From Phapecoctavirus DIJ07P1, in the sequence record OZ035743.1: a DNA stretch of 64,000 bases; one strand, written 5' to 3'. A program made the position numbers and the translations under genes. Under the pieces are notes generated by a model. It saw nothing but the letters and a program-made list of their open reading frames with translations, did no database searches and had not been told where the DNA came from. Every line of letters begins with the position of its first letter. Positions within the stretch are counted from its first letter, which is position 1. This document shows, piece after piece, positions 44,249 through 58,229 of the stretch.

Positions 44249-44527
44249 TTAAAATGGTTCGTTAGTCTCCATCATATATTCTGCTTCTAGTTCTTCCATA
44301 TGCTTTCTAAATTGGAAAGCAATTTCTGCTACAGTTACATTTAAATCTTTTTCAAAAACTTCTGTAGAGCCTTCATAAAAACGAATACCGTCAATTAAAA
44401 GCCCTCCGTGGTAATCCCAATCACTTTCACGAGAAAGCGGGTTAGGCTCTTCATAATAGTAATCCACCTCCACAACTAAGGCTTTCCCGTTACGAGTGGT
44501 GTATTCAAAATCAAAAGTGTTAATCAT
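44249..44527 (-). CDS. hypothetical protein
   Basis: ORF track. Confidence 0.25.
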   Translation of the reverse strand: MINTFDFEYTTRNGKALVVEVDYYYEEPNPLSRESDWDYHGGLLIDGIRFYEGSTEVFEKDLNVTVAEIAFQFRKHMEELEAEYMMETNEPF

Positions 44528-45471
44528 TATAGCTCCTCAAATAAAAGTCTACGACGCTCATTCAACACATCAATGTGATAATGAGTCCTGACATACTTAG
44601 CTAATGCTAATCCTTTCTCCATGCAAACATTAGGAGCACTTAATAAGTATTCCGTAATATCTTTCCACTCGGAAGGTGTTTCAGCAAAGAATAACAAATC
44701 TTTAAACTCTTGTGTATGATAATTCTCACGAGGAGAACAGATCAAAGGTAAACCCTTAGCACCTGCCTCAAGAATTTTAAGATTGCTTTTTGCATTATTA
44801 AACACGTTATCAATCAATGGCGCAAGACTGATTTGATGACCATCGTAAGATTCCATGTAGTTGGCATATGGTCTTACACCTTCATAAACACAAGTTGGTG
44901 CGACATTTTCTCTGATTACAGACCATTCACGACTACTTAAAACTTCAGAATCCCTACGAAAACCACATATTGTAAGATCTTTACCAAAATCAGGCAAGAT
45001 AGCCAAATCTTGTTTATGTGTTTCACTTCCAGCCCAGACTAATGGAGTTTTGGAGTAGCGATCACGGGTCAACACAAATTGACCTTCATCGTAAGGAAGT
45101 CCATTAGGGATTATGTGCACATTATCATTGTATTGTGAAAGTTCAACTTGCAAGGCAGGTGTCGTAGTTGTAACAAGGTCACTGTGCTCTAAAAACCATT
45201 TTAAATGTTCACGAATACCTGATTCAAAAATACCTTCTAACATGTGTCCTTTTGGAATAACTAAAGAGTCATCCAAATCCATAACCATTTTAAAGCCTAG
45301 GTTTTTAAGGGCTAAAAAGCCCTCTTTACCTTTTGTTGGCACTCCGTTAAAAACGAAAACGTTGTGTTTAGGTTGTGAAGAGAACTGCCTTGAGTAAGGC
45401 AGCACTACCCTATGGAAATCGCAGACACTATAATTGATTCCGTTACGATTGTCAAGAATTATTTGTCCCAT
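44527..45471 (-). CDS. glycosyltransferase-like protein, paralog A
   Basis: paralog of the adjacent gene (shared NLKILEAGAKGLPLICS, PLVWAG, HRVVLP blocks). Confidence 0.4.
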   Translation of the reverse strand: MGQIILDNRNGINYSVCDFHRVVLPYSRQFSSQPKHNVFVFNGVPTKGKEGFLALKNLGFKMVMDLDDSLVIPKGHMLEGIFESGIREHLKWFLEHSDLVTTTTPALQVELSQYNDNVHIIPNGLPYDEGQFVLTRDRYSKTPLVWAGSETHKQDLAILPDFGKDLTICGFRRDSEVLSSREWSVIRENVAPTCVYEGVRPYANYMESYDGHQISLAPLIDNVFNNAKSNLKILEAGAKGLPLICSPRENYHTQEFKDLLFFAETPSEWKDITEYLLSAPNVCMEKGLALAKYVRTHYHIDVLNERRRLLFEEL

Positions 45472-45478
45472 ACTTCAC

Positions 45479-46426
45479 CTACAAACTTTCAATAACCTGG
45501 CGTCGCAATTCGTTTGCATCTGCTAGATTATAGTGTGTTCGAACATGTTCCGCTAAGAACAAGCCACGATCTTCCCGATAGTTTGGATTGCGAAGAAGCT
45601 TAACAATTTCGTAATGCCATTCTGCTTTGTTCTCTGCGTAAGCAACAGCACGAGCATCTACAGGGTTAAAATAAGGTAATACCTTAGAACAAACAATCGG
45701 AATACCCTTTGCTCCAGCTTCCAGGATTTTGAGATTACTTTTACAATTATTAAAATCATTATCTACCAAAGGAGCTATAGCAATAGCATGACTTTCGTAA
45801 ACACTCATGTAATTATCTAAATCTTTTACAGCAGCTTTATATTTAGCGTTTGGTAAATTTCTGCGAATCTTAATCCACTCTTGTCCCGTGATGCTCTGTG
45901 ATGCTTCATATCCCGCAATAGTAAGAAGTTCATCATCGAAAGTATTAGAGACTAGTCGTAAGTCGGGTTCGTGACTAGCACCGCCAGCCCATACAACAGG
46001 GGTACCGGATGAACGATCATTTGACAAAGTGAATTGTCCACTATCAAAAGGAAGTGCATTTCGGATCACAACAACATTCCTATTTAAGTGACGGATCTTA
46101 TATGCCAAGTATTCCGTAGTCACAATAACCACATCAGCAAGCTTAACCATAGCCACAATAGCATGAGTGTTTGACTCGTATAAACTTGCCAAATAATGCT
46201 CTGGATTAAGTTGGTAAAAATCATCTAAGTCTACAACAATCTTAACACCTTGACGTTTCAAAGATAAAACGTATTCTGCACCTTTAGAGTGGATACGGTT
46301 AAACACAACAACATCTTTCTTAGGTTGAATATTATTGTTGTTAAATGGCATAACAATACGATGATAGTCACAACCGCTGTGAGGTTTTGCATCAATTTTT
46401 AGTTTAGACCATTTTTTATTTGACAT
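45479..46426 (-). CDS. glycosyltransferase-like protein, paralog B
   Basis: same length and conserved blocks as 44527-45471 (NLKILEAGAKGIPIVCS, PVVWAG, HRIVMP). Confidence 0.4.
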   Translation of the reverse strand: MSNKKWSKLKIDAKPHSGCDYHRIVMPFNNNNIQPKKDVVVFNRIHSKGAEYVLSLKRQGVKIVVDLDDFYQLNPEHYLASLYESNTHAIVAMVKLADVVIVTTEYLAYKIRHLNRNVVVIRNALPFDSGQFTLSNDRSSGTPVVWAGGASHEPDLRLVSNTFDDELLTIAGYEASQSITGQEWIKIRRNLPNAKYKAAVKDLDNYMSVYESHAIAIAPLVDNDFNNCKSNLKILEAGAKGIPIVCSKVLPYFNPVDARAVAYAENKAEWHYEIVKLLRNPNYREDRGLFLAEHVRTHYNLADANELRRQVIESL

Positions 46427-47099
46427 GTGCTAGTGCCTCCTCATAGGAAATTCGGATTTTCCCATTTTTAATATCCTCTAAAGATGCTTTATATTCTTCC
46501 CAGTTAATCCCAATAGCAGCTTCTTTCTCTTCTTTTGTCAGATTAGCAAAAGGCATAGGATTGTTTCCAAAAACATCGTCTGGGTGGATATAAGCCATGA
46601 TACGAAGTGGACAAGGTGTTGCCTGAATACCATGATTCAAACCAGCAGCTTTCAAACGGTGTCCCCATTCGGCATCTTCAAAACCATAACCGTGAGTGTA
46701 AGGGCGGAAATAACCCATCTTCTCAACAACGGCACGAGAATACATTGCAAATTGACACATTGCAAGTTCCCAGAGAATAACTTCTCCTTTGCTTCCAACA
46801 ACTTTATCTTTGAAGTACTCCGGCATACCAAAAAAATCCCATCCTCCAGAAACAGCTTGATCTACAAAGTATGTTTCCCATCCTTCCATGACTGGGTAGC
46901 AATCATCATCAAAAATAAACCAATAATCATAACCTTCTTCATAAAACTGGTGCATAAGTTCATTCCTGGCGTAAGCTACACCTTTACGATCTGGATCGTT
47001 GAATACTCGAAAATCTGCATGTGGATCTGTTACAAGATAGTCTTTAAGTGGACGGACACCTACAGTGATAACACCCACTCCGATTTTAATATTTTCCAT
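46416..47099 (-). CDS. GT-A-type glycosyltransferase-like protein (DxD motif)
   Basis: YWFIFDDDCYP acidic motif in a beta-alpha context. Confidence 0.35.
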   Translation of the reverse strand: MENIKIGVGVITVGVRPLKDYLVTDPHADFRVFNDPDRKGVAYARNELMHQFYEEGYDYWFIFDDDCYPVMEGWETYFVDQAVSGGWDFFGMPEYFKDKVVGSKGEVILWELAMCQFAMYSRAVVEKMGYFRPYTHGYGFEDAEWGHRLKAAGLNHGIQATPCPLRIMAYIHPDDVFGNNPMPFANLTKEEKEAAIGINWEEYKASLEDIKNGKIRISYEEALAHVK

Positions 47100-47107
47100 T
47101 TTCTCTC

Positions 47108-47671
47108 CTAGATAGTTTTACTGTGATCGTGACAGTGTAATAAATGATGTATAGACCGTTGAGGATTTGTTTGACCTAATCTGTAAATGTGAAACAGATA
47201 CATTCCCCGCATCAATCCTAACCTCTTTCCTTTTTCATGTAAAGTGCGAGAGAAAATTAGGTCGAATTGGATAGATTTTTCTTCGAAAGGAATTTCATTC
47301 CACAATGATTTTCTAAAAAGCAAAAAGAAACCTGCCAGAGGTGTTCCGAAAGGAACTTCTTCAACACTCACTTTATGATATTCTCTTGCAATCTTAGCAT
47401 ATTCTATATGGTTTAGAATATCTGGATCATCGTTAATTTGGTTAGAGAAAAGCTGATAACCACTACCTAACCTGTTACAAGTTGCACCTATTACATCAAA
47501 AGGCGGGTTTGACATAACAAGCTCTTCAAGCATAGATGGTTGATCAGGCAGGAGGAACATTGTATCGGTATCTCTTAAGCACACCCAACTATCATCTGGA
47601 AGAACGGCAATAGCTTCATTGATAGCCTTGCCGATATTTCCTGTCAGATAGGGAGTAATATAATAAATCAT
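47108..47671 (-). CDS. hypothetical protein, possibly nucleotide-sugar transferase-like
   Basis: VCLRDTDTMF acidic motif; weak. Confidence 0.25.
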   Translation of the reverse strand: MIYYITPYLTGNIGKAINEAIAVLPDDSWVCLRDTDTMFLLPDQPSMLEELVMSNPPFDVIGATCNRLGSGYQLFSNQINDDPDILNHIEYAKIAREYHKVSVEEVPFGTPLAGFFLLFRKSLWNEIPFEEKSIQFDLIFSRTLHEKGKRLGLMRGMYLFHIYRLGQTNPQRSIHHLLHCHDHSKTI

Positions 47672-48372: not shown

Positions 48373-48894
48373 TTAACTCCCCTTTGGTAGATAGAAACCA
48401 TGCACTTTATCTCGATAAACAAGACGCATATCACGCTCCCAGTGTGTCTTTATATTCCGCTTCTTGAAGTATAGAGCACCTTTAGTAACATCTAAAACAG
48501 ACCGCAATTCAGGAAAATGTTTCTCTAAATAAAGTAAACGCTCCGCTATTGCTTTTGCTTCCTGCCACTTATCTTTCTCTGTTACGTTAAAAGTTTTCGC
48601 ATATGAGAATTGCCCTTTCTGGAACAAGACTCCTCTGACTGTGTTAGGAAAGTAGGCATCATTTCTTCTATTGATTACCACATTCCCAACGGCATTCATT
48701 CCTTTTTTACCCAGACCGCGACCTTCTGCGTAAATTGCACAAGCTAATAGAATTTTATCATTATATTGTTTTGTACATTTGTGAACTACTTTAGCGGTTT
48801 TTACGTTTGCAGCTTCGGCTTTCGCCACAACAGGTGTAAATGTAAAAGCAGTTAAGGATAGTAACGCAACTGTTACAAAGTTTTTTATCAGCAA
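48373..48894 (-). CDS. secreted SleB/CwlJ-like cell wall hydrolase (candidate endolysin)
   Basis: Sec signal peptide ending AKAEA; CAIYAEGRG...GMNAVGNVVINR matches the Hydrolase_2 signature. Confidence 0.55.
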   Translation of the reverse strand: MLIKNFVTVALLSLTAFTFTPVVAKAEAANVKTAKVVHKCTKQYNDKILLACAIYAEGRGLGKKGMNAVGNVVINRRNDAYFPNTVRGVLFQKGQFSYAKTFNVTEKDKWQEAKAIAERLLYLEKHFPELRSVLDVTKGALYFKKRNIKTHWERDMRLVYRDKVHGFYLPKGS

Positions 48895-48955: not shown

Positions 48956-48993
48956 GAGGGGGATTTCTCCCCCTCAAAATCATTTGTTAATTA

Positions 48994-49596
48994 TTATGGA
49001 CATTCATACCATTCTTTTTTACCACCGAAGGCCATCACCACATCGCAAATATCCAGACCAGCTTTACCTACACCATATGCTTTCAGTTTCCATTCCCCAT
49101 CTTCACGAACCAAGGAAGCCACGTGGCAGATTGTGTTGCCAGCTACTTCAGGAGCCAGGAAGTCAAAATCCAGAATTTCCACATTGCGCTCGGAGTCGAA
49201 GATTTTAAGCATACCTTCAGAAGCATGACCAAAACGTTTCAGACCTGTATCATCATCAATGGTCAGAACAAAGGCAATCTCTTGTGCATCAGGAGAGATT
49301 TTAGCCAGAGTAATATCAATCTGCTCCATGCTGCCAGTTCCATCACGAACATCGTCACCAGCGAAGGTAGAACGTTCAGGATCAAACTTGTTAGCATAGC
49401 AAACCAGATGACGTGCAGACAGCATTTCAGGATTGCCAGCGGCATTGTGACGACAAACCAGTGCACTTACATCCAGATCCAGTTTAGAATCAGATTTCCA
49501 AGAGAATTCCAGGCGCAGTTCTTTCAGAGCCGGAGCAACTTTCTTCAGGGAAATTTTTTCGCTAGAGCCTTTTTTCAGGGAAATTTTATCAGTCAT
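48994..49596 (-). CDS. terD: TerD-family protein
   Basis: aligns by eye along its length to E. coli TerD (ISLKKG..ISLKK, LDLDVSA, GDDVRDGTGSMEQI, EGMLKIFD, DGEWKLKAYGVG). Confidence 0.85.
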   Translation of the reverse strand: MTDKISLKKGSSEKISLKKVAPALKELRLEFSWKSDSKLDLDVSALVCRHNAAGNPEMLSARHLVCYANKFDPERSTFAGDDVRDGTGSMEQIDITLAKISPDAQEIAFVLTIDDDTGLKRFGHASEGMLKIFDSERNVEILDFDFLAPEVAGNTICHVASLVREDGEWKLKAYGVGKAGLDICDVVMAFGGKKEWYECP

Positions 49597-49611
49597 CTTT
49601 TGTCTCCTCTA

Positions 49612-49881
49612 TTATTTAAGTGTAATACCAGTTACAGTCAATTCTACTTCCAAAAGCTTAGATGTGTTTTGGATTGATACTAATTGTGCATGATGGTTTA
49701 GTTCTACAGCAGAATAATCGTTTTCCCCATCATCTACTTTTAAATAAACAATGACTTCACTAAGGTCTAAACCATTTTCGTCAAATGCATTTTCATAGAC
49801 GAAAGTATCTCCTACATCCAAATCCTTAATGGTAAGGCATCGTTTATTTATTTTTTGCTCATCAATTTCGAAGTTTAACAC
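49612..49881 (-). CDS. small protein, paralog of 50903-51247
   Basis: shares F-I-EEK...DLGIG-TF-Y-A-ED-GLD and C-terminal V-L-VT-ITLK with the other copy. Confidence 0.35.
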   Translation of the reverse strand: MLNFEIDEQKINKRCLTIKDLDVGDTFVYENAFDENGLDLSEVIVYLKVDDGENDYSAVELNHHAQLVSIQNTSKLLEVELTVTGITLK

Positions 49882-50110
49882 TTCTTCCTCCTAATGTTAT
49901 CTCCGGTTTGTATATACGAAGAATTATAGCATTTTCATTTTCTTTGTCAACCCATTCTTCATAATCAGGCCATACATGAATCTCTACTCTACTTACAATA
50001 TCTTCCATTCGCACAGTCCCAATGAAATACTCTTTGAGACTGCGCATAATGAAAGCTTCTCTCTCGCGCCAATAATTTTCTATGACTTGAGAGGCAAGCT
50101 CGTCGATCAT
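49862..50110 (-). CDS. hypothetical small protein
   Basis: ORF track. Confidence 0.25.
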   Translation of the reverse strand: MIDELASQVIENYWREREAFIMRSLKEYFIGTVRMEDIVSRVEIHVWPDYEEWVDKENENAIILRIYKPEITLGGRSVKLRN

Positions 50111-50901
50111 TTTTTAGCACCTACTTTAACAACCCACTCTCCGAACTCTTCAGATAAGAGTTTGTCATAAAGCTCTGAATCTGTCAAGTCTAAATCTTTA
50201 ATGCCAATAAAACCAACATTATCATAAGCATTTGCCAGTTCTTTCAGGAAGCCAAACTTCTCATTACCAACGCCAACCATGAACCAATAAATAGGTTTAT
50301 TCTTATTCTCTTCAATAAGACGACGAACAGCACTAGGATCACCATTCTCACCATCCGTCTGGAAGAATACAACACCAGGGGTAACGTCAGCACCTGGTTC
50401 AGACACAGCTACAACCTTTTCACGCTCTACAGATACTGTTTCAGTTTTACCAAGCAGACGATTAAAGAAGCCTTTCTTTGGAGCCTCCTCTTGTACCACT
50501 TGTTTAGTGGTAATATATTTGGTAACAGTGCCAAAATACTCATCGTAGATATCTGCCATTACAGGGGCGTAATTTGTTCCACCTCCGATACGAACATTGC
50601 GCATACATTTACCAACATAGTCATCGTAAACGTCTGCTGTTGCTGGAGTAAGCTCTTGGGAACTCGTATTGAAGGCCCACATATCAATTTGTTGATTATC
50701 GTCGAACAGCATACCAAAAGGAAGCAGTTTACCTACAAAATCACTCACTACCCCACTAGAATATAGACCATGCATACTACCAGAAATATCTAGAGCACAT
50801 GCTACACGAAGAACAATCTTACCTTCATTCAGGTTCTTATTCTTTTTCAGAGAGAAAGCAAGGTTTTCTTGACGTTTTTTCAGGCTGATTTTCTCGGACA
50901 T
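50107..50901 (-). CDS. vWA-domain protein with TerD-like N-terminus (TerY-like)
   Basis: MIDAS motif LDISGSM, later GGGTNYAP and FFQTDGENGD; N-terminus ISLKK...SLKK resembles TerD start. Confidence 0.6.
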   Translation of the reverse strand: MSEKISLKKRQENLAFSLKKNKNLNEGKIVLRVACALDISGSMHGLYSSGVVSDFVGKLLPFGMLFDDNQQIDMWAFNTSSQELTPATADVYDDYVGKCMRNVRIGGGTNYAPVMADIYDEYFGTVTKYITTKQVVQEEAPKKGFFNRLLGKTETVSVEREKVVAVSEPGADVTPGVVFFQTDGENGDPSAVRRLIEENKNKPIYWFMVGVGNEKFGFLKELANAYDNVGFIGIKDLDLTDSELYDKLLSEEFGEWVVKVGAKK

Positions 50902-50902
50902 A

Positions 50903-51247
50903 TTATTTCTCCTTCTTAAGTGTAATATTGGTAACTTCTAAATCTACTTCCACCATATTTGTATCTGGCGGGATGCAATGAGTATAGCCTCGTTGTGCTA
51001 GTGATCCATTAATACAGATCGCACTGTTTGTGGAATTTTTAATGAACACCAAGTTACGGTAGGTATCCAACCCTGCGTCTTCATAGGCATCATAATACAT
51101 GAATGTGGCCCCTATGCCAAGATCTTCGAAAGCAATAGGTAAATCCTGACTTTTTTCTTCTTGAATATTGAATCTAAACACGCATACCTCCTCTACCAAT
51201 TTTGAAGCCCAAATCGTAAGCTTCCTTAGTGATCTTTTGTAACTCAC
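50903..51247 (-). CDS. small protein, paralog of 49612-49881 (likely GTG start near 51181)
   Basis: paralogy; GGAGG precedes GTG that overlaps the upstream stop. Confidence 0.35.
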   Translation of the reverse strand: MSYKRSLRKLTIWASKLVEEVCVFRFNIQEEKSQDLPIAFEDLGIGATFMYYDAYEDAGLDTYRNLVFIKNSTNSAICINGSLAQRGYTHCIPPDTNMVEVDLEVTNITLKKEK

Positions 51248-51737
51248 TTATAGGAAGTGTTACAAGAGGATCATCTTCTTCAATTTCCATCTTGTCATCT
51301 TCTGTTTCAATGAGAGTATTATGCACTTTGTGATAAGGGTTGTCAACACGTTTAAACTTATTCTTTTCTGTGCTGAAAAAACAATCTGGATCTTCTTCAC
51401 CATCACCCCAACCTTGGTTAGGATCTCCGTCAGATTGTTCTGTAGGGATTTCACCTGTAAAATACTCTTCCAGCACCATAGCGATACCGTCCCTTGGATT
51501 TGAGGAATGCATCAAATCACAAACCTTACTCCAATCCATAGCCCATTCGAATCGTTCGCGAACACCATTTTCATCCTCCTTTCCAGAGAAAACACAACCA
51601 TAACTATCATAGTTGCCATACATCTCTTCAATAACAACACCGTCCTTCAAAAGAAAGAGGTAGCAAGGTGATCCGTCGAAAGAAGTAGAAAGGGCAGCTT
51701 TGCCCGATTCTTTGCACAAAAAACTAAAACAACCCAT
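51174..51737 (-). CDS. acidic hypothetical protein
   Basis: ORF track. Confidence 0.3.
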   Translation of the reverse strand: MGCFSFLCKESGKAALSTSFDGSPCYLFLLKDGVVIEEMYGNYDSYGCVFSGKEDENGVRERFEWAMDWSKVCDLMHSSNPRDGIAMVLEEYFTGEIPTEQSDGDPNQGWGDGEEDPDCFFSTEKNKFKRVDNPYHKVHNTLIETEDDKMEIEEDDPLVTLPISELQKITKEAYDLGFKIGRGGMRV

Positions 51738-52105: not shown

Positions 52106-52303
52106 TTACTCCTCCTCCTCATTGAAGTCAATATCTGCAAGGAGTTGGAATTTACGGAAGTTACGACAACCTTCATAAATATAACAATCACGACAAACTG
52201 CTAGAACACTTGGGGGATATATGCCTCCCATCGGTGCGAATCGTTTTTCGTCATCATAACGGACACCAATGTCTTCATCAATTATATAGATACGGATTCT
52301 CAT
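52106..52303 (-). CDS. small Cys-containing protein
   Basis: ORF track. Confidence 0.2.
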   Translation of the reverse strand: MRIRIYIIDEDIGVRYDDEKRFAPMGGIYPPSVLAVCRDCYIYEGCRNFRKFQLLADIDFNEEEE

Positions 52304-53412
52304 TTACCAAGCCCTCGTTTCACAGCAGCTACCATCCCGTCTTCCAAAGATTGAACTTCATTAATATAATCAACACGAGCAGCACGGGCTTCCGTATTGA
52401 TGCGGTTAGTTTCTTCCAACATCTTAACCAAGTTTTCCTGATCGTGACGCAGAGTTTCAATATCCAACACTTGACGGTTAGCCAGTGCTGCTGCTTCGAT
52501 CTGATTCTGTGTGGCAAGATCGCTACCCAGTTTAATTGCCAGGTTAAATTCATCAAGAACGTTATTCTGCGTCTCTGCTGCTTTCATTTGACGTAAGCTC
52601 TCGATATACATTGAGAAGTTAGCAGAGTAAGCAGGAATAACATTATTTACTATGTTACGCGCAGATCGCATTAAGCTTGCAGAAACTTTTTGCATACCTT
52701 GTACACGCGGTCCCATTTGGACACACAGTAGGCGCAATGCTTTTAAATCTGCAATACGAATCTCCAGAAGATCCAAAGTATCTCGGATCACTTGTCGCTG
52801 TTCTACTGCATCTTCTGGAAGAGCAGCCAAAGCTTGTTCTTCTTTTTCATAGGTTGCTGTTAGAAGCTGCATATCTCGGTTCAAACTTGCAGCATATTGT
52901 CCAATAGCTTGATGTAGCTTTTCAAGATATACCAAGGAATCTTCTTCTTTGCGAATATCCATTTGAAGGTTTTTTACCAACTCTTCAATACGGTTATTAA
53001 CATTATCAAACTCCCCAAACAGATCTTCTTTCATACCCATAACTTTTTTAATGAGTTTAGTAATACCCTTGCTTTGTTTAATAGAGTTTGGATCAAGTTG
53101 TTTTGCCTGTTTAATCAAAGCTGTGAGTCGTTCACTCATCTGATCGCCTTGATTACTACGTTGATGTTTTAATACCTCGGCATTCAAGGAACGCAAGGTT
53201 GTTCCTGCCTCTGCTCCAATCTCTTCGATCTCCTGTCGGGTCATAGAAGGCAAAACTGGAACTTCTTGCGGTGCCGCTGGTGCATAAACAGGACTGGCAT
53301 CTAACACGCTTGGAGCGAATACAGATTTACTTGCATCTGTTGTTGCAGCAAATACGCTCATTTCAGGTTTCTTCTGACAGCCAGTAGCTGCTTTTAAAAA
53401 TGGACTTGTCAT
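52300..53412 (-). CDS. TelA-like toxic-anion-resistance family protein (tentative)
   Basis: 370 aa, all-helical, size and Ter neighbourhood consistent with TelA/KlaB; no motif check possible. Confidence 0.35.
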   Translation of the reverse strand: MTSPFLKAATGCQKKPEMSVFAATTDASKSVFAPSVLDASPVYAPAAPQEVPVLPSMTRQEIEEIGAEAGTTLRSLNAEVLKHQRSNQGDQMSERLTALIKQAKQLDPNSIKQSKGITKLIKKVMGMKEDLFGEFDNVNNRIEELVKNLQMDIRKEEDSLVYLEKLHQAIGQYAASLNRDMQLLTATYEKEEQALAALPEDAVEQRQVIRDTLDLLEIRIADLKALRLLCVQMGPRVQGMQKVSASLMRSARNIVNNVIPAYSANFSMYIESLRQMKAAETQNNVLDEFNLAIKLGSDLATQNQIEAAALANRQVLDIETLRHDQENLVKMLEETNRINTEARAARVDYINEVQSLEDGMVAAVKRGLGK

Positions 53413-53999
53413 TCTTCATTCTCCTCTTCTGCATCTCTTATATATGGTGAAACACCGTACTCTTTAGCTACTTTAACCCAATCGTCCCATTTATACAACC
53501 ATAATTTTCCTTCGGTCCCTTCTTTATCTGATTTCAACCACATATTAGGTTGCTTACCTGGGTACATGCGATTAGGTTTACGATTATAACCTCTAACACA
53601 TCTTGTCGCAAACCTATCTACCAGAACAAGAACATATTTATATTCGTGGTTCAACGGCTCTTTGGAAGTGGCTTTAGGATTAGCCCCTAACTCTGCTGCC
53701 AGTTTTTGCCAATGAGCACCGTGTCTACTAAACTTACCCATACAACCATCAATAGCATGAGCAATTTCGTGCTTCATTGTATCCACGATCATATCTCTTG
53801 TAGAGTTCTTATGCAAGTGCCAATTTACAACAACAATTTTATCTCGGTAGTTGCACCAACCGAAAGAGTTATTCACTTTGTTTCTAACACAAGCTTTATA
53901 TCCTGCTTCACGTAACATGTTGTAGTAAACAGGAAAATCTTCTTTTATTTCCTGCATCACTTCCCACCACAAGAGTTGCAAGTCTCTCTCGGTATACAT
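53409..53999 (-). CDS. SprT-like zinc metalloprotease
   Basis: MKHEIAHAIDG...HGAHW (HExxH plus downstream His/Trp). Confidence 0.55.
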   Translation of the reverse strand: MYTERDLQLLWWEVMQEIKEDFPVYYNMLREAGYKACVRNKVNNSFGWCNYRDKIVVVNWHLHKNSTRDMIVDTMKHEIAHAIDGCMGKFSRHGAHWQKLAAELGANPKATSKEPLNHEYKYVLVLVDRFATRCVRGYNRKPNRMYPGKQPNMWLKSDKEGTEGKLWLYKWDDWVKVAKEYGVSPYIRDAEEENEE

Positions 54000-55624: not shown

Positions 55625-56599
55625 TTAAACAGAAGCTTCTTCTTTTTCAGGGAAGATAAAGCTTGCAATAACACCAAGAGATAATGTGCCTAGAACAATC
55701 ATCAGACTTACGTTAGGGGAAATATCATGCGGGAGGAATGACCACTTGGCATGAAGTGTTTCACCGAACGGGTGATACATAAGTTTAGCACCAACAAACA
55801 CCAGAACCACAGCAACAGCTTTCTCTAAGTGAACCAGATATTTCACAGCTACACTTAACACAAAGAAAAGTGCACGTAAACCAAGAACAGCCATCAGCAT
55901 TGCAGAATAAACTAGCAGAGGTTCTTGTGTCACACCGATCACAGCCGGAACTGAATCAAAAGAGAAGACAATATCTGTAAGCTCAATAACAAACACACAA
56001 AGAAGAGCAGGAGTTGCATATTTAATACCATTCTTAATGGTGATGAACTTTTCACCATCCAGTGCATTGTGCACAGGCAGAACTTTACCTACTAAACGAA
56101 CAGCCCAATGTTTAGAGTAATCAATATCCTCTTCTTCGTCACCACCTTTGATGATAGCCACGGCAGACCAAGCTACAATCAAACCGAACAACACTTGGAC
56201 CGACCAATGAAGGTTAAACAAAGCGGTCCCTGCTGCAACAAAAATACCTCGGAAGACAATGGCTCCTGCAATCCCCCAAAGTAGAATCTTATGTTGGAGA
56301 TGTGTGCTCTTAATTCCAAAGCTTGCAAAAATTGCCATGAACACCATTAGGTTATCTACAGAAAGACTCTTTTCCAACACATAGCCACTTAGGAAAAGCG
56401 CGGCAAACTCTTTACCATGTTCTACCCAAATGAATGCGTAATACCCTAAAGCTAAAGCAATCCAAAAAACAGACCAAAGCAAAGCAGATTTAATTCCAAT
56501 TTCTTTATTCTCTTTATGACCAAAGAAATCGATACCAATAGACAATGCCAAAATACCAACTAAAACAACTACATCAATAATTGGGAAACCGAGTTGCAT
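55625..56599 (-). CDS. terC: TerC-family integral membrane protein
   Basis: multi-pass membrane protein with LSGYVLEKSLSVDNLMVF family signature. Confidence 0.8.
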   Translation of the reverse strand: MQLGFPIIDVVVLVGILALSIGIDFFGHKENKEIGIKSALLWSVFWIALALGYYAFIWVEHGKEFAALFLSGYVLEKSLSVDNLMVFMAIFASFGIKSTHLQHKILLWGIAGAIVFRGIFVAAGTALFNLHWSVQVLFGLIVAWSAVAIIKGGDEEEDIDYSKHWAVRLVGKVLPVHNALDGEKFITIKNGIKYATPALLCVFVIELTDIVFSFDSVPAVIGVTQEPLLVYSAMLMAVLGLRALFFVLSVAVKYLVHLEKAVAVVLVFVGAKLMYHPFGETLHAKWSFLPHDISPNVSLMIVLGTLSLGVIASFIFPEKEEASV

Positions 56600-56914: not shown

Positions 56915-57454
56915 TTAAAGTTTATAAATAGTCACATCGTGACCTGTTTTTACTAAAGTTTCTTCAATCATCACTTGGATGATAGCCCAATTACCTCCAG
57001 CATATCCAGCGCCAATCATAGGTAAGCCGATCTTACATTTTTGGTCACGGAGAAGCAAATCATTAGCCATAGCTATTAGTGCATCGTAAAGTGCATCATA
57101 GTCCAACTGACGACCTTTAGCATTGTATCCGTAACGGTATTGCCCGTATAGATTATATACCAAAGGGTCTGATTGTTCGTCTGGCACCCCTAAACTAAAA
57201 GAACCTAACTTACTTTGATCACCAGCCATTGTGTCTAAATCTGCCGCATATGCATAAGGGAATGCTCGTTTAATTTGCGGAGCAATTCCTGCTCCCATAT
57301 TACACATACAATTGCAACAATGAGCAATAACAGTTACTTCACCTGCTTTAGCGGCATCAATAAGATTACCTGTTTTCATTTTAAGCATTTTTAGCTCCTT
57401 ATTACAGAATGTGTTGTTTTGTGTAACGATCCAAGAATTCAAAGTTTTCAGCAT
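56915..57454 (-). CDS. macro-domain protein (ADP-ribose binding/processing)
   Basis: GNLIDAAKAGEVTVIAHCCNC..MGAGIAPQIKRAFP and GLPMIGAGYAGGNW resemble MacroD motifs; start probably internal Met. Confidence 0.5.
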   Translation of the reverse strand: MLKTLNSWIVTQNNTFCNKELKMLKMKTGNLIDAAKAGEVTVIAHCCNCMCNMGAGIAPQIKRAFPYAYAADLDTMAGDQSKLGSFSLGVPDEQSDPLVYNLYGQYRYGYNAKGRQLDYDALYDALIAMANDLLLRDQKCKIGLPMIGAGYAGGNWAIIQVMIEETLVKTGHDVTIYKL

Positions 57455-58229
57455 ACTTTGAAATTCGGTTGTAACCTTCTCCCAAACATCCGAAGAAAAG
57501 TTGCTCTACATAGTAGTGTGGCAATTGGCTAAGAATGATTTTGAAGTCTTCGTGATTTTGGCCCATAAGATACTTAATAGGACGAACAAGACACTGTGCA
57601 TCACGTTCTTCATTAATCATTTTAACAAACGCTTCTGGTGTATTGATGTAGTTAAAATTCAGTTTAGCTTCAGTATCTGCTTGATTACCTTCATATTTTG
57701 CAAAATACAAGAAGTAAACATCATTTTTAACTTGATTTTCATCAAGAATCTCAATCAGTTTGTCTTCATGAGTTCCGGTGATATTTACATCATCAATGAA
57801 CACAAGCTTCTTATCACCCCAGAATTCTTTGTTGCAGTAGAATGTATCCCCATCAATAAGTTTCTTACGACTAGCTTTATCCAAGAAACCATAATCGTTG
57901 ATATAGCTAACTTTACGATGAATAATATCCAGTTCTGCTGAACGACCTTGATCATATTGTGCTTGCAACATATTAAAGTAATTAATAAAATGATCTGTCA
58001 TCATTGTTGCAGCATTGTGCACATGGTTATAAGGAGAAGGGATGATAACAAATTGTTCCCCAATATGTTTCATTGCCACTTGAGCAAAAAACTGAAGTGC
58101 CAATTCTTTACCCATACGACGCGCAGCTTGGTTACTACCAAATTTCAATTTTGAATAGTCTTTGATATCAAAAGTAGCAGTTTCCAGGTCATCAAATTTA
58201 TTTGCAAAAATTTGAGTTTGATTACGCAT
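57402..58229 (-). CDS. type I phosphoribosyltransferase
   Basis: PRPP-binding motif KKLVFIDDVNITGTHE. Confidence 0.6.
   Translation of the reverse strand: MRNQTQIFANKFDDLETATFDIKDYSKLKFGSNQAARRMGKELALQFFAQVAMKHIGEQFVIIPSPYNHVHNAATMMTDHFINYFNMLQAQYDQGRSAELDIIHRKVSYINDYGFLDKASRKKLIDGDTFYCNKEFWGDKKLVFIDDVNITGTHEDKLIEILDENQVKNDVYFLYFAKYEGNQADTEAKLNFNYINTPEAFVKMINEERDAQCLVRPIKYLMGQNHEDFKIILSQLPHYYVEQLFFGCLGEGYNRISKYAENFEFLDRYTKQHIL

Follow-up and report, generated by a model that had tools for sequence, protein, structure and literature searches.

For Ter stress-response clusters, Anantharaman, Iyer and Aravind (2012) reportedly described a 'hub' of TelA, TerC, TerD and vWA proteins. In the terZABCDEF cluster of IncHI2 plasmids, a TerD domain and a vWA domain are joined in one protein, TerF (413 aa). 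Abbreviated versions of such clusters are found in phages, and clusters of the composition considered here have already been described (Iyer et al. 2021, PMC7824862; phage phiKp34, PMC8386662). Here, we analysed the distal end of a Ter-type cluster (positions 48,994 to 51,247) in a 64,000-nt stretch of DNA from Phapecoctavirus DIJ07P1 (OZ035743.1), hereafter called the window, in which two small genes, A and B, lie before the genes for a stand-alone vWA-TerF-like protein and a TerD protein, respectively. A and B belong to one family of small proteins, which we call S. We favour, with slightly better than even confidence, the reading that S was duplicated alone, long ago, and serves as an accessory partner of the phage vWA and TerD proteins.

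The cluster shares the co-directional families PRTase_3, TerC, TelA, vWA-TerF-like and TerD with the IncHI2 cluster and its phage counterparts. On a Caballeronia plasmid, genes for TelA, vWA, a DUF475 protein and TerD follow one another in the same order as in the phage cluster. In contrast to the IncHI2 and Caballeronia clusters and to many other phage Ter clusters, vWA and TerD are flanked by one or two S genes, and the TerB, TerA/Z/E and ATP-grasp genes are missing. The vWA part of IncHI2 TerF is homologous to the phage protein (PF10138), and ISL.K...SL.K precedes the vWA core in both. Unlike in TerF, however, TerD is encoded by a separate gene in the phage, and both the vWA and the TerD gene have an S gene in front of them. 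The locus is thus a modest lineage-specific variant of a phage gene cluster that is already known, distinguished by its duplicated small gene.

The paralogy of the two small proteins, which a preliminary description of the window had noticed, is confirmed. They are identical at 27 of 89 positions in a full-length, gapless BLASTP alignment (E 5e-12), match the same protein family (phrog_11278; 1.7e-49 for A and 3.8e-44 for B) and have the same predicted fold with secondary-structure elements in the same order in both AlphaFold models. The expected sizes of 89 and about 93 aa compare with 89 and 92 aa found. Likewise, each small gene directly precedes a gene whose product begins with an ISLKK...SLKK motif, vWA after A and TerD after B. 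A spacer of 1 nt separates the stop codon of A from the start codon of vWA, and one of 15 nt separates the stop codon of B from the start codon of TerD. From this arrangement an ancient tandem duplication of a two-gene module had been suspected. An old duplication of the small gene did occur, but the downstream genes are not paralogs. Their likeness is confined to a motif of 33 columns, and they differ in Pfam family and in fold, a beta-sandwich in TerD as opposed to a copine-like vWA domain. The TerD protein scores 98.9 bits against PF02342 (cut-off 25.3) and aligns from residue 3 with the solved structures 2KXT (E 1.5e-15) and 3IBZ (E 2.9e-14). The vWA protein scores 130.1 bits against PF10138 (cut-off 29.4), and residues D38, S40 and S42 of its metal ion-dependent adhesion site (MIDAS) are invariant among eight aligned proteins. 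Since its 264 aa yielded no PF02342 match, it is not a fusion with a TerD domain of the TerF type; what had been read as a TerD N-terminus fused to vWA is a motif of about 20-30 residues.

Gene order in relatives indicates that the small gene and its neighbour were not copied jointly. The comparison covered annotated phages, contigs that code for remote members of the S family and a further 42 viral contigs retrieved via vWA, and each locus was scored with hidden Markov models for S, vWA and TerD. With the exception of TerF-type plasmids, vWA and TerD are adjacent and each present in single copy, whereas S occurs in 0, 1 or 2 copies independently of them. The order S-vWA-orf82-S-TerD is found in Phapecoctavirus (the window, SF1-1, phiWec179, L012 and L014), S-vWA-TerD in phi92/Justusliebigvirus and Klebsiella phage 05F01, and vWA-S-TerD in L008, L009/L018, L010, L011, L058 and L059. 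S-TerD stands on a short contig without a vWA gene (L007), and vWA-TerD with no S detected is the arrangement of L015, L019-L021 and L023-L028. Finally, L056 and L057 carry vWA-S1-S2-TerD, with a tandem pair of S genes that share 35 % identity (E 2e-6) across a 9-nt spacer (L056 1180-1725; L057 4001-4546). Thus, the small gene can duplicate by itself. This second two-copy arrangement may reflect a separate duplication. S adjoins vWA or TerD in all of the approximately 12 distinct loci read, at a spacing of -8 to +32 nt. Inspection of the IncHI2 ter operon and of the bacterial cluster from Caballeronia revealed no S gene.

The shared N-terminus, MTDKISLKKGSSEKISLKK in TerD and MSEKISLKKRQENLAFSLKK in vWA, is an ancestral signature of both families and no scar of a duplication. 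Direct comparison of the two proteins gave a weak BLASTP match (E 0.013 over 29 residues), and profile-profile alignment with hhalign was restricted to the first 33 columns (probability 58.6 %, E 9.6e-5). The double motif was also written as a regular expression, which was chosen after the data had been seen. It matched two of the 179 open reading frames (ORFs) of the window, TerD and vWA, both at residue 5, with 0.08 matches expected in shuffled N-termini. Across all loci collected, including divergent phages and plasmids, the motif is present in 36 of 44 distinct vWA-TerF-like proteins and in 29 of 30 TerD proteins, and several inspected exceptions are near-variants. L7, K9, L18 and K20 are invariant in eight aligned vWA-TerF-like proteins, as are the equivalent L7, K9, L17 and K19 in ten TerD proteins. 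According to the 2KXT alignment, the motif of TerD coincides with the canonical start of the domain whose structure has been solved. In a tblastn search against plasmids, residues 4-257 of the phage vWA protein aligned to IncHI2 TerF from TerF residue 177. There, ARISLEKK...VSLAKKASVSLTK comes directly behind the TerD domain (around residue 178), between the two domains of TerF. The bacterial stand-alone vWA protein of the Caballeronia plasmid starts with MITLEKRAAKVSIVLEK. Occurrence of the motif in divergent phages, in the Caballeronia vWA protein and in IncHI2 TerF indicates that it was not made by a local duplication in this phage. A literature search, which left out Anantharaman et al. 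2012, found no description of the motif as shared by TerD and vWA.

The duplication of S is old. Synonymous sites between A and B are saturated. Where both proteins have the same residue, the same codon is used at 14 of 27 positions compared with 11.6 expected from local codon usage, which argues against a recent duplication or gene conversion; recent conversion between the A and B junctions was rejected on the same grounds. The serine codons of the two ISLKK motifs, AGC and TCC, come from different codon families. In a neighbor-joining tree based on about 88 columns, Phapecoctavirus A and the single phi92 copy form a clade with 94.5 % bootstrap support, and Phapecoctavirus B a clade of its own with 76 %. 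As A groups with phi92 and B stands apart, the A/B split predates the divergence of Phapecoctavirus and Justusliebigvirus. The phi92 protein gp174 (phrog_11278) is an ortholog of A with 64-65 % identity and the same place before vWA (gp173), and phi92 contains this single S copy without orf82 and B. Consequently, either the phi92-like and 05F01-like lineages have lost B, or B was acquired from a phage of the vWA-S-TerD type.

The open frame of A extends to 51247 (114 aa), but translation almost certainly begins at the GTG codon at position 51181. An AGGAGG lies 6 nt upstream of this codon, similarity to B and to every homolog begins there, the gene is a 279-nt coding sequence in public records, and the resulting length fits a family of 87-93 aa. 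The S family is very small and restricted to phages. Word-index searches returned about 22 relatives, and a profile run exhaustively against 1.84 billion representative proteins yielded 20 matches. Apart from two fragments and a spurious match, all were stand-alone proteins of 87-93 aa. The spurious match (P0034, 1191 aa) is an FN3-repeat protein in which eight weak stretches add up. S gave no matches to Pfam, PADLOC or PDB sequences, and a BFVD fold search retrieved only the paralog and unnamed small phage proteins. Both AlphaFold models are of good confidence, A with a predicted local distance difference test score (pLDDT) of 83 and a predicted template modelling score (pTM) of 0.72, and B with values of 88 and 0.79. 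The best structural matches of both models are SH3-like small beta-barrels, namely the uL2 C-terminal domain, the SH3-like domain of DtxR/IdeR, FeoA, KOW/EF-P domain I and Tudor. S is therefore predicted to be a small beta-barrel of a kind typical of binding modules, probably SH3-like but not assigned to any particular family. The best-conserved segment of S is the C-terminal V.L.V(S/T).(I/V)(S/T)LK (e.g. 50903-50945 and 49612-49645), which is similar to the (I/V)SLKK motif in the products of the downstream genes. In neither monomer model does DSSP assign a strand to this segment, where pLDDT is about 82.

What might S do? Its position next to vWA or TerD suggests that it may contact these proteins, and we infer that S would be a dispensable accessory or adaptor subunit that binds phage vWA and/or TerD. 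A and B are probably specialised for different partners or would act as a pair. S would then tune a membrane-proximal, metal-dependent Ter complex. If plasmid ter operons are a guide, such a complex may keep other phages from superinfecting the cell or preserve the host envelope while the infection proceeds. For phage Ter systems, the literature proposes superinfection exclusion, or homeostasis of envelope and metals in the infected cell (PMC7824862). All genes are under purifying selection, with nonsynonymous below synonymous diversity (pN < pS). Several points weigh against our reading. S evolves 4-8 times faster than TerD (dN, the nonsynonymous divergence, is 0.4-0.5 versus 0.05-0.13); between Phapecoctavirus variants, dN is about 0.4-0.5 for S, 0.05-0.06 for TerD and 0.11-0.20 for vWA. 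S is absent from many vWA-TerD phages and from the one bacterial cluster examined (Caballeronia), and the core function thus does not require it. The S tree does not resolve its deep nodes, so that either position may be ancestral and B may have arisen in situ or by transfer. Finally, the promoters P1 and P2 described below are consensus matches only.

The main rival regards S as fast-evolving phage 'moron' or host-takeover genes without a tie to Ter that settled in permissive sites around vWA and TerD. Rapid evolution, patchy presence among otherwise syntenic phages and the missing PADLOC and Pfam matches would be expected under this assumption, which also accommodates the strong promoter of its own before copy B and the presence of many other lineage-specific small ORFs such as orf82 and the 187-aa ORF in the same stretch. 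Yet the family turned up nowhere else. It stands beside vWA or TerD in every context read, even in phages that share no more than about 50 % identity in vWA, and the genes are very closely spaced or overlap by 8 nt. Two copies have been kept in at least two lineages. This exclusive, tight linkage argues against the moron explanation, and we regard it as unlikely. Marginally less probable still is that B did not stem from a duplication within the Phapecoctavirus lineage but entered on a cassette with orf82 and P2, when this lineage recombined with a vWA-S-TerD phage. Such an origin is in line with the restriction of orf82 and B to Phapecoctavirus-type loci, vWA being directly followed by TerD in phi92 and 05F01, and with the neighbor-joining tree, in which B is placed weakly with the 'middle' S of L008 and not with A. 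However, the bootstrap value for B and L008 is only 27 %, loss of B in two lineages fits equally well, and no recombination breakpoints were identified.

More speculative, and in our estimate improbable, is an extension of the partner hypothesis in which ISLKK...SLKK would be an N-terminal docking beta-hairpin, exposed by TerD and vWA alike, that is recognised by dedicated S adaptors. A would bring vWA, and B would bring TerD, into a single Ter complex made by the phage, replacing the covalent fusion in TerF. Docking might proceed by beta-sheet augmentation via the C-terminal strand V.L.V(S/T).(I/V)(S/T)LK of S or, alternatively, the conserved aspartate of an S GLD motif might be presented to the vWA MIDAS site. 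Least probable, and already largely refuted by the comparative data, is the tandem duplication of an ancestral module in which a small gene was followed by one encoding a TerD-type N-terminus, one downstream copy later becoming vWA or vWA-fused: although both small genes immediately precede an ISLKK-start gene, a sigma-70-like promoter lies before each unit and the junction DNA is alike (ATTACACTTAA, a Shine-Dalgarno sequence and then ATG..GA.AAAAT...CCTGAAAAAA), the motif in distant phages, bacteria and plasmid TerF predates this phage lineage, vWA and TerD are alike in those 33 columns only, S number is independent of both, even to the point of a tandem S-S pair, the conserved C-terminal strand together with the Shine-Dalgarno sequence and the motif accounts for the junction likeness, with codon identity as expected and serine codons that differ, and orf82 breaks the supposed repeat.

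Table 1. Features of the Ter-type cluster and its surroundings in the window.
Feature	Position	Strand	Characteristics	Basis
Small protein A	50903-51181	minus	92 aa, GTG start, phrog_11278	ORF list, homology, start evidence
Small protein B	49612-49881	minus	89 aa, GTG start, paralog of A	ORF list, BLASTP, PHROG
vWA-TerF-like	50107-50901	minus	Stand-alone, 264 aa, MIDAS DxSxS (DISGS), N-terminal ISLKK...FSLKK	PF10138, E 1.6e-37
TerD family	48994-49596	minus	200 aa, canonical TerD N-terminus ISLKKGSSEKISLKK	PF02342, E 3.2e-28
orf82	49862-50110	minus	82 aa, phrog_22387, function unassigned	PHROG; between vWA and B
P2, promoter-like	49923-49950	minus	TTGACA-16 nt-TGnTATAAT, 12/12 plus extended -10	Sigma-70 consensus match
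P1, promoter-like	51318-51346	minus	TTGACA-17 nt-CATAAT, 11/12	Consensus match, weaker evidence than P2
187-aa ORF	51174-51737	minus	phrog_14928, begins MGCFSFLC, carries P1	Phapecoctavirus and phi92-type loci only
GC-rich hairpin	48956-48975	minus	8-bp stem, GAAA loop	18 nt after TerD stop
PRTase_3	57402-58229	minus	ComF-like phosphoribosyltransferase, type linked to Ter systems	Pfam
Macro domain	56915-57454	minus	Between PRTase_3 and TerC	Pfam
TerC	55625-56599	minus	Membrane protein	Pfam
SprT-like	53409-53999			Pfam
TelA	52300-53412	minus		Pfam
SleB-type	48373-48894		Cell-wall hydrolase	Pfam

The gene between vWA and B, orf82, which the preliminary description had left unmentioned, is limited to Phapecoctavirus-type loci, and because of it the two 'units' are not contiguous repeats. 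It is a coding sequence, as its indels are in frame and the ratio of nonsynonymous to synonymous divergence (dN/dS) is 0.22-0.39. The 187-aa ORF upstream of A had no Pfam match. Comparison of the loci identifies both ORFs as lineage-specific insertions. A duplicated unit of three genes was considered and rejected, as orf82 and the 187-aa ORF are dissimilar (E 0.057).

The putative promoter P2 is located inside the 3' part of orf82, about 40 nt upstream of B. Its hexamers and the TG are invariant in four Phapecoctavirus-type loci in which the surrounding DNA has diverged by 20-40 %. As these bases are invariant within the orf82 coding sequence, they appear to double as codons (W-V/I/L-D-K...) and as promoter. 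P1 is situated some 140 nt upstream of A, and phi92 and L014 have this site as well. Weaker promoter-like sites (10/12) precede S-TerD or TerD at the equivalent place in phi92, 05F01, L008, L011 and L019. The hairpin after TerD is not a canonical intrinsic terminator because it lacks a T-run. The folded 61-nt stretch that contains it has a minimum free energy of -17.2 kcal/mol (z -2.5), and the hairpin probably marks where the B-TerD transcript ends. Together, these elements suggest two transcription units, P1-A-vWA-orf82 and P2-B-TerD.

Canonical TerD proteins contain the acidic Ca2+-binding motif GDN(R/L)TG(E/A)GDGDDE, known from the Klebsiella TerD structure. At the place of GDNRTGEGDGDDE in canonical TerD, the phage protein reads GDDVRDGTGSMEQ (residues ~80-92, 49330-49370). 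D82, G88 and E91 are kept but the acidic run GDGDDE is not, and one metal site of TerD may thus be degenerate in this phage clade. In the vWA-S-TerD locus L058, a Band_7 (SPFH/stomatin-like) membrane-scaffold gene follows directly after TerD (2095-2574), which is consistent with a membrane-proximal role of the module.

Phapecoctaviruses are phAPEC8-like coliphages of the Stephanstirmvirinae with genomes of about 150 kb. In a DNA comparison with public records, the 3.4 kb around the S genes were 98-99 % identical to more than 60 Phapecoctavirus genomes. The S, vWA, orf82 and TerD genes are all encoded on the minus strand within a long co-directional gene run. Pfam assigned a Ter-type cluster of PRTase_3, Macro, TerC, SprT-like, TelA, vWA-TerF-like and TerD, with the region studied here at its distal end, as well as NrdD and NrdG. 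PADLOC models did not match S, vWA, TerD, TelA or TerC, and the SprT-like protein gave only a weak SspF match. Neither Rfam families nor tRNA genes were detected in the window. Just upstream of TerC, the PRTase_3 gene overlaps the Macro-domain gene (56915-58229, minus). This pairing suggests that a nucleotide or ADP-ribose-related metabolite step is attached to the phage Ter cluster. Downstream of the endolysin, four consecutive glycosyltransferase-like genes occupy 44527-47671 on the minus strand. A pair among these, with products of 314 and 315 aa, is apparently paralogous, as both are assigned to phrog_7162 in the SF1-1 record. Among the matching database records, MG065650.1 ('Campylobacter phage B15') is 98.7 % identical to the 3.4-kb query at the DNA level, and MG065656.1 ('Campylobacter phage C3') matched A alone with 62 % identity in tblastn, which is the phi92-type level. 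The host labels of these two Campylobacter records look doubtful. Further matching records are named Klebsiella, Pseudomonas or Acinetobacter phage.

In summary, this is an otherwise ordinary case of a lineage-specific gene duplication, in an accessory cluster of a kind already familiar from phages. Bacteria, plasmids and large phages commonly carry Ter clusters, and the mechanism of these clusters is still poorly understood. A small protein family that is found only beside vWA and TerD, in some lineages in two copies, points to an extra subunit. As a bait in pull-downs or a partner in co-fold predictions, such a subunit could serve as a handle for the vWA/TerD assembly. The N-terminal hairpin shared by TerD and vWA provides a simple and testable hypothesis of how these proteins might recognise a common partner or each other.

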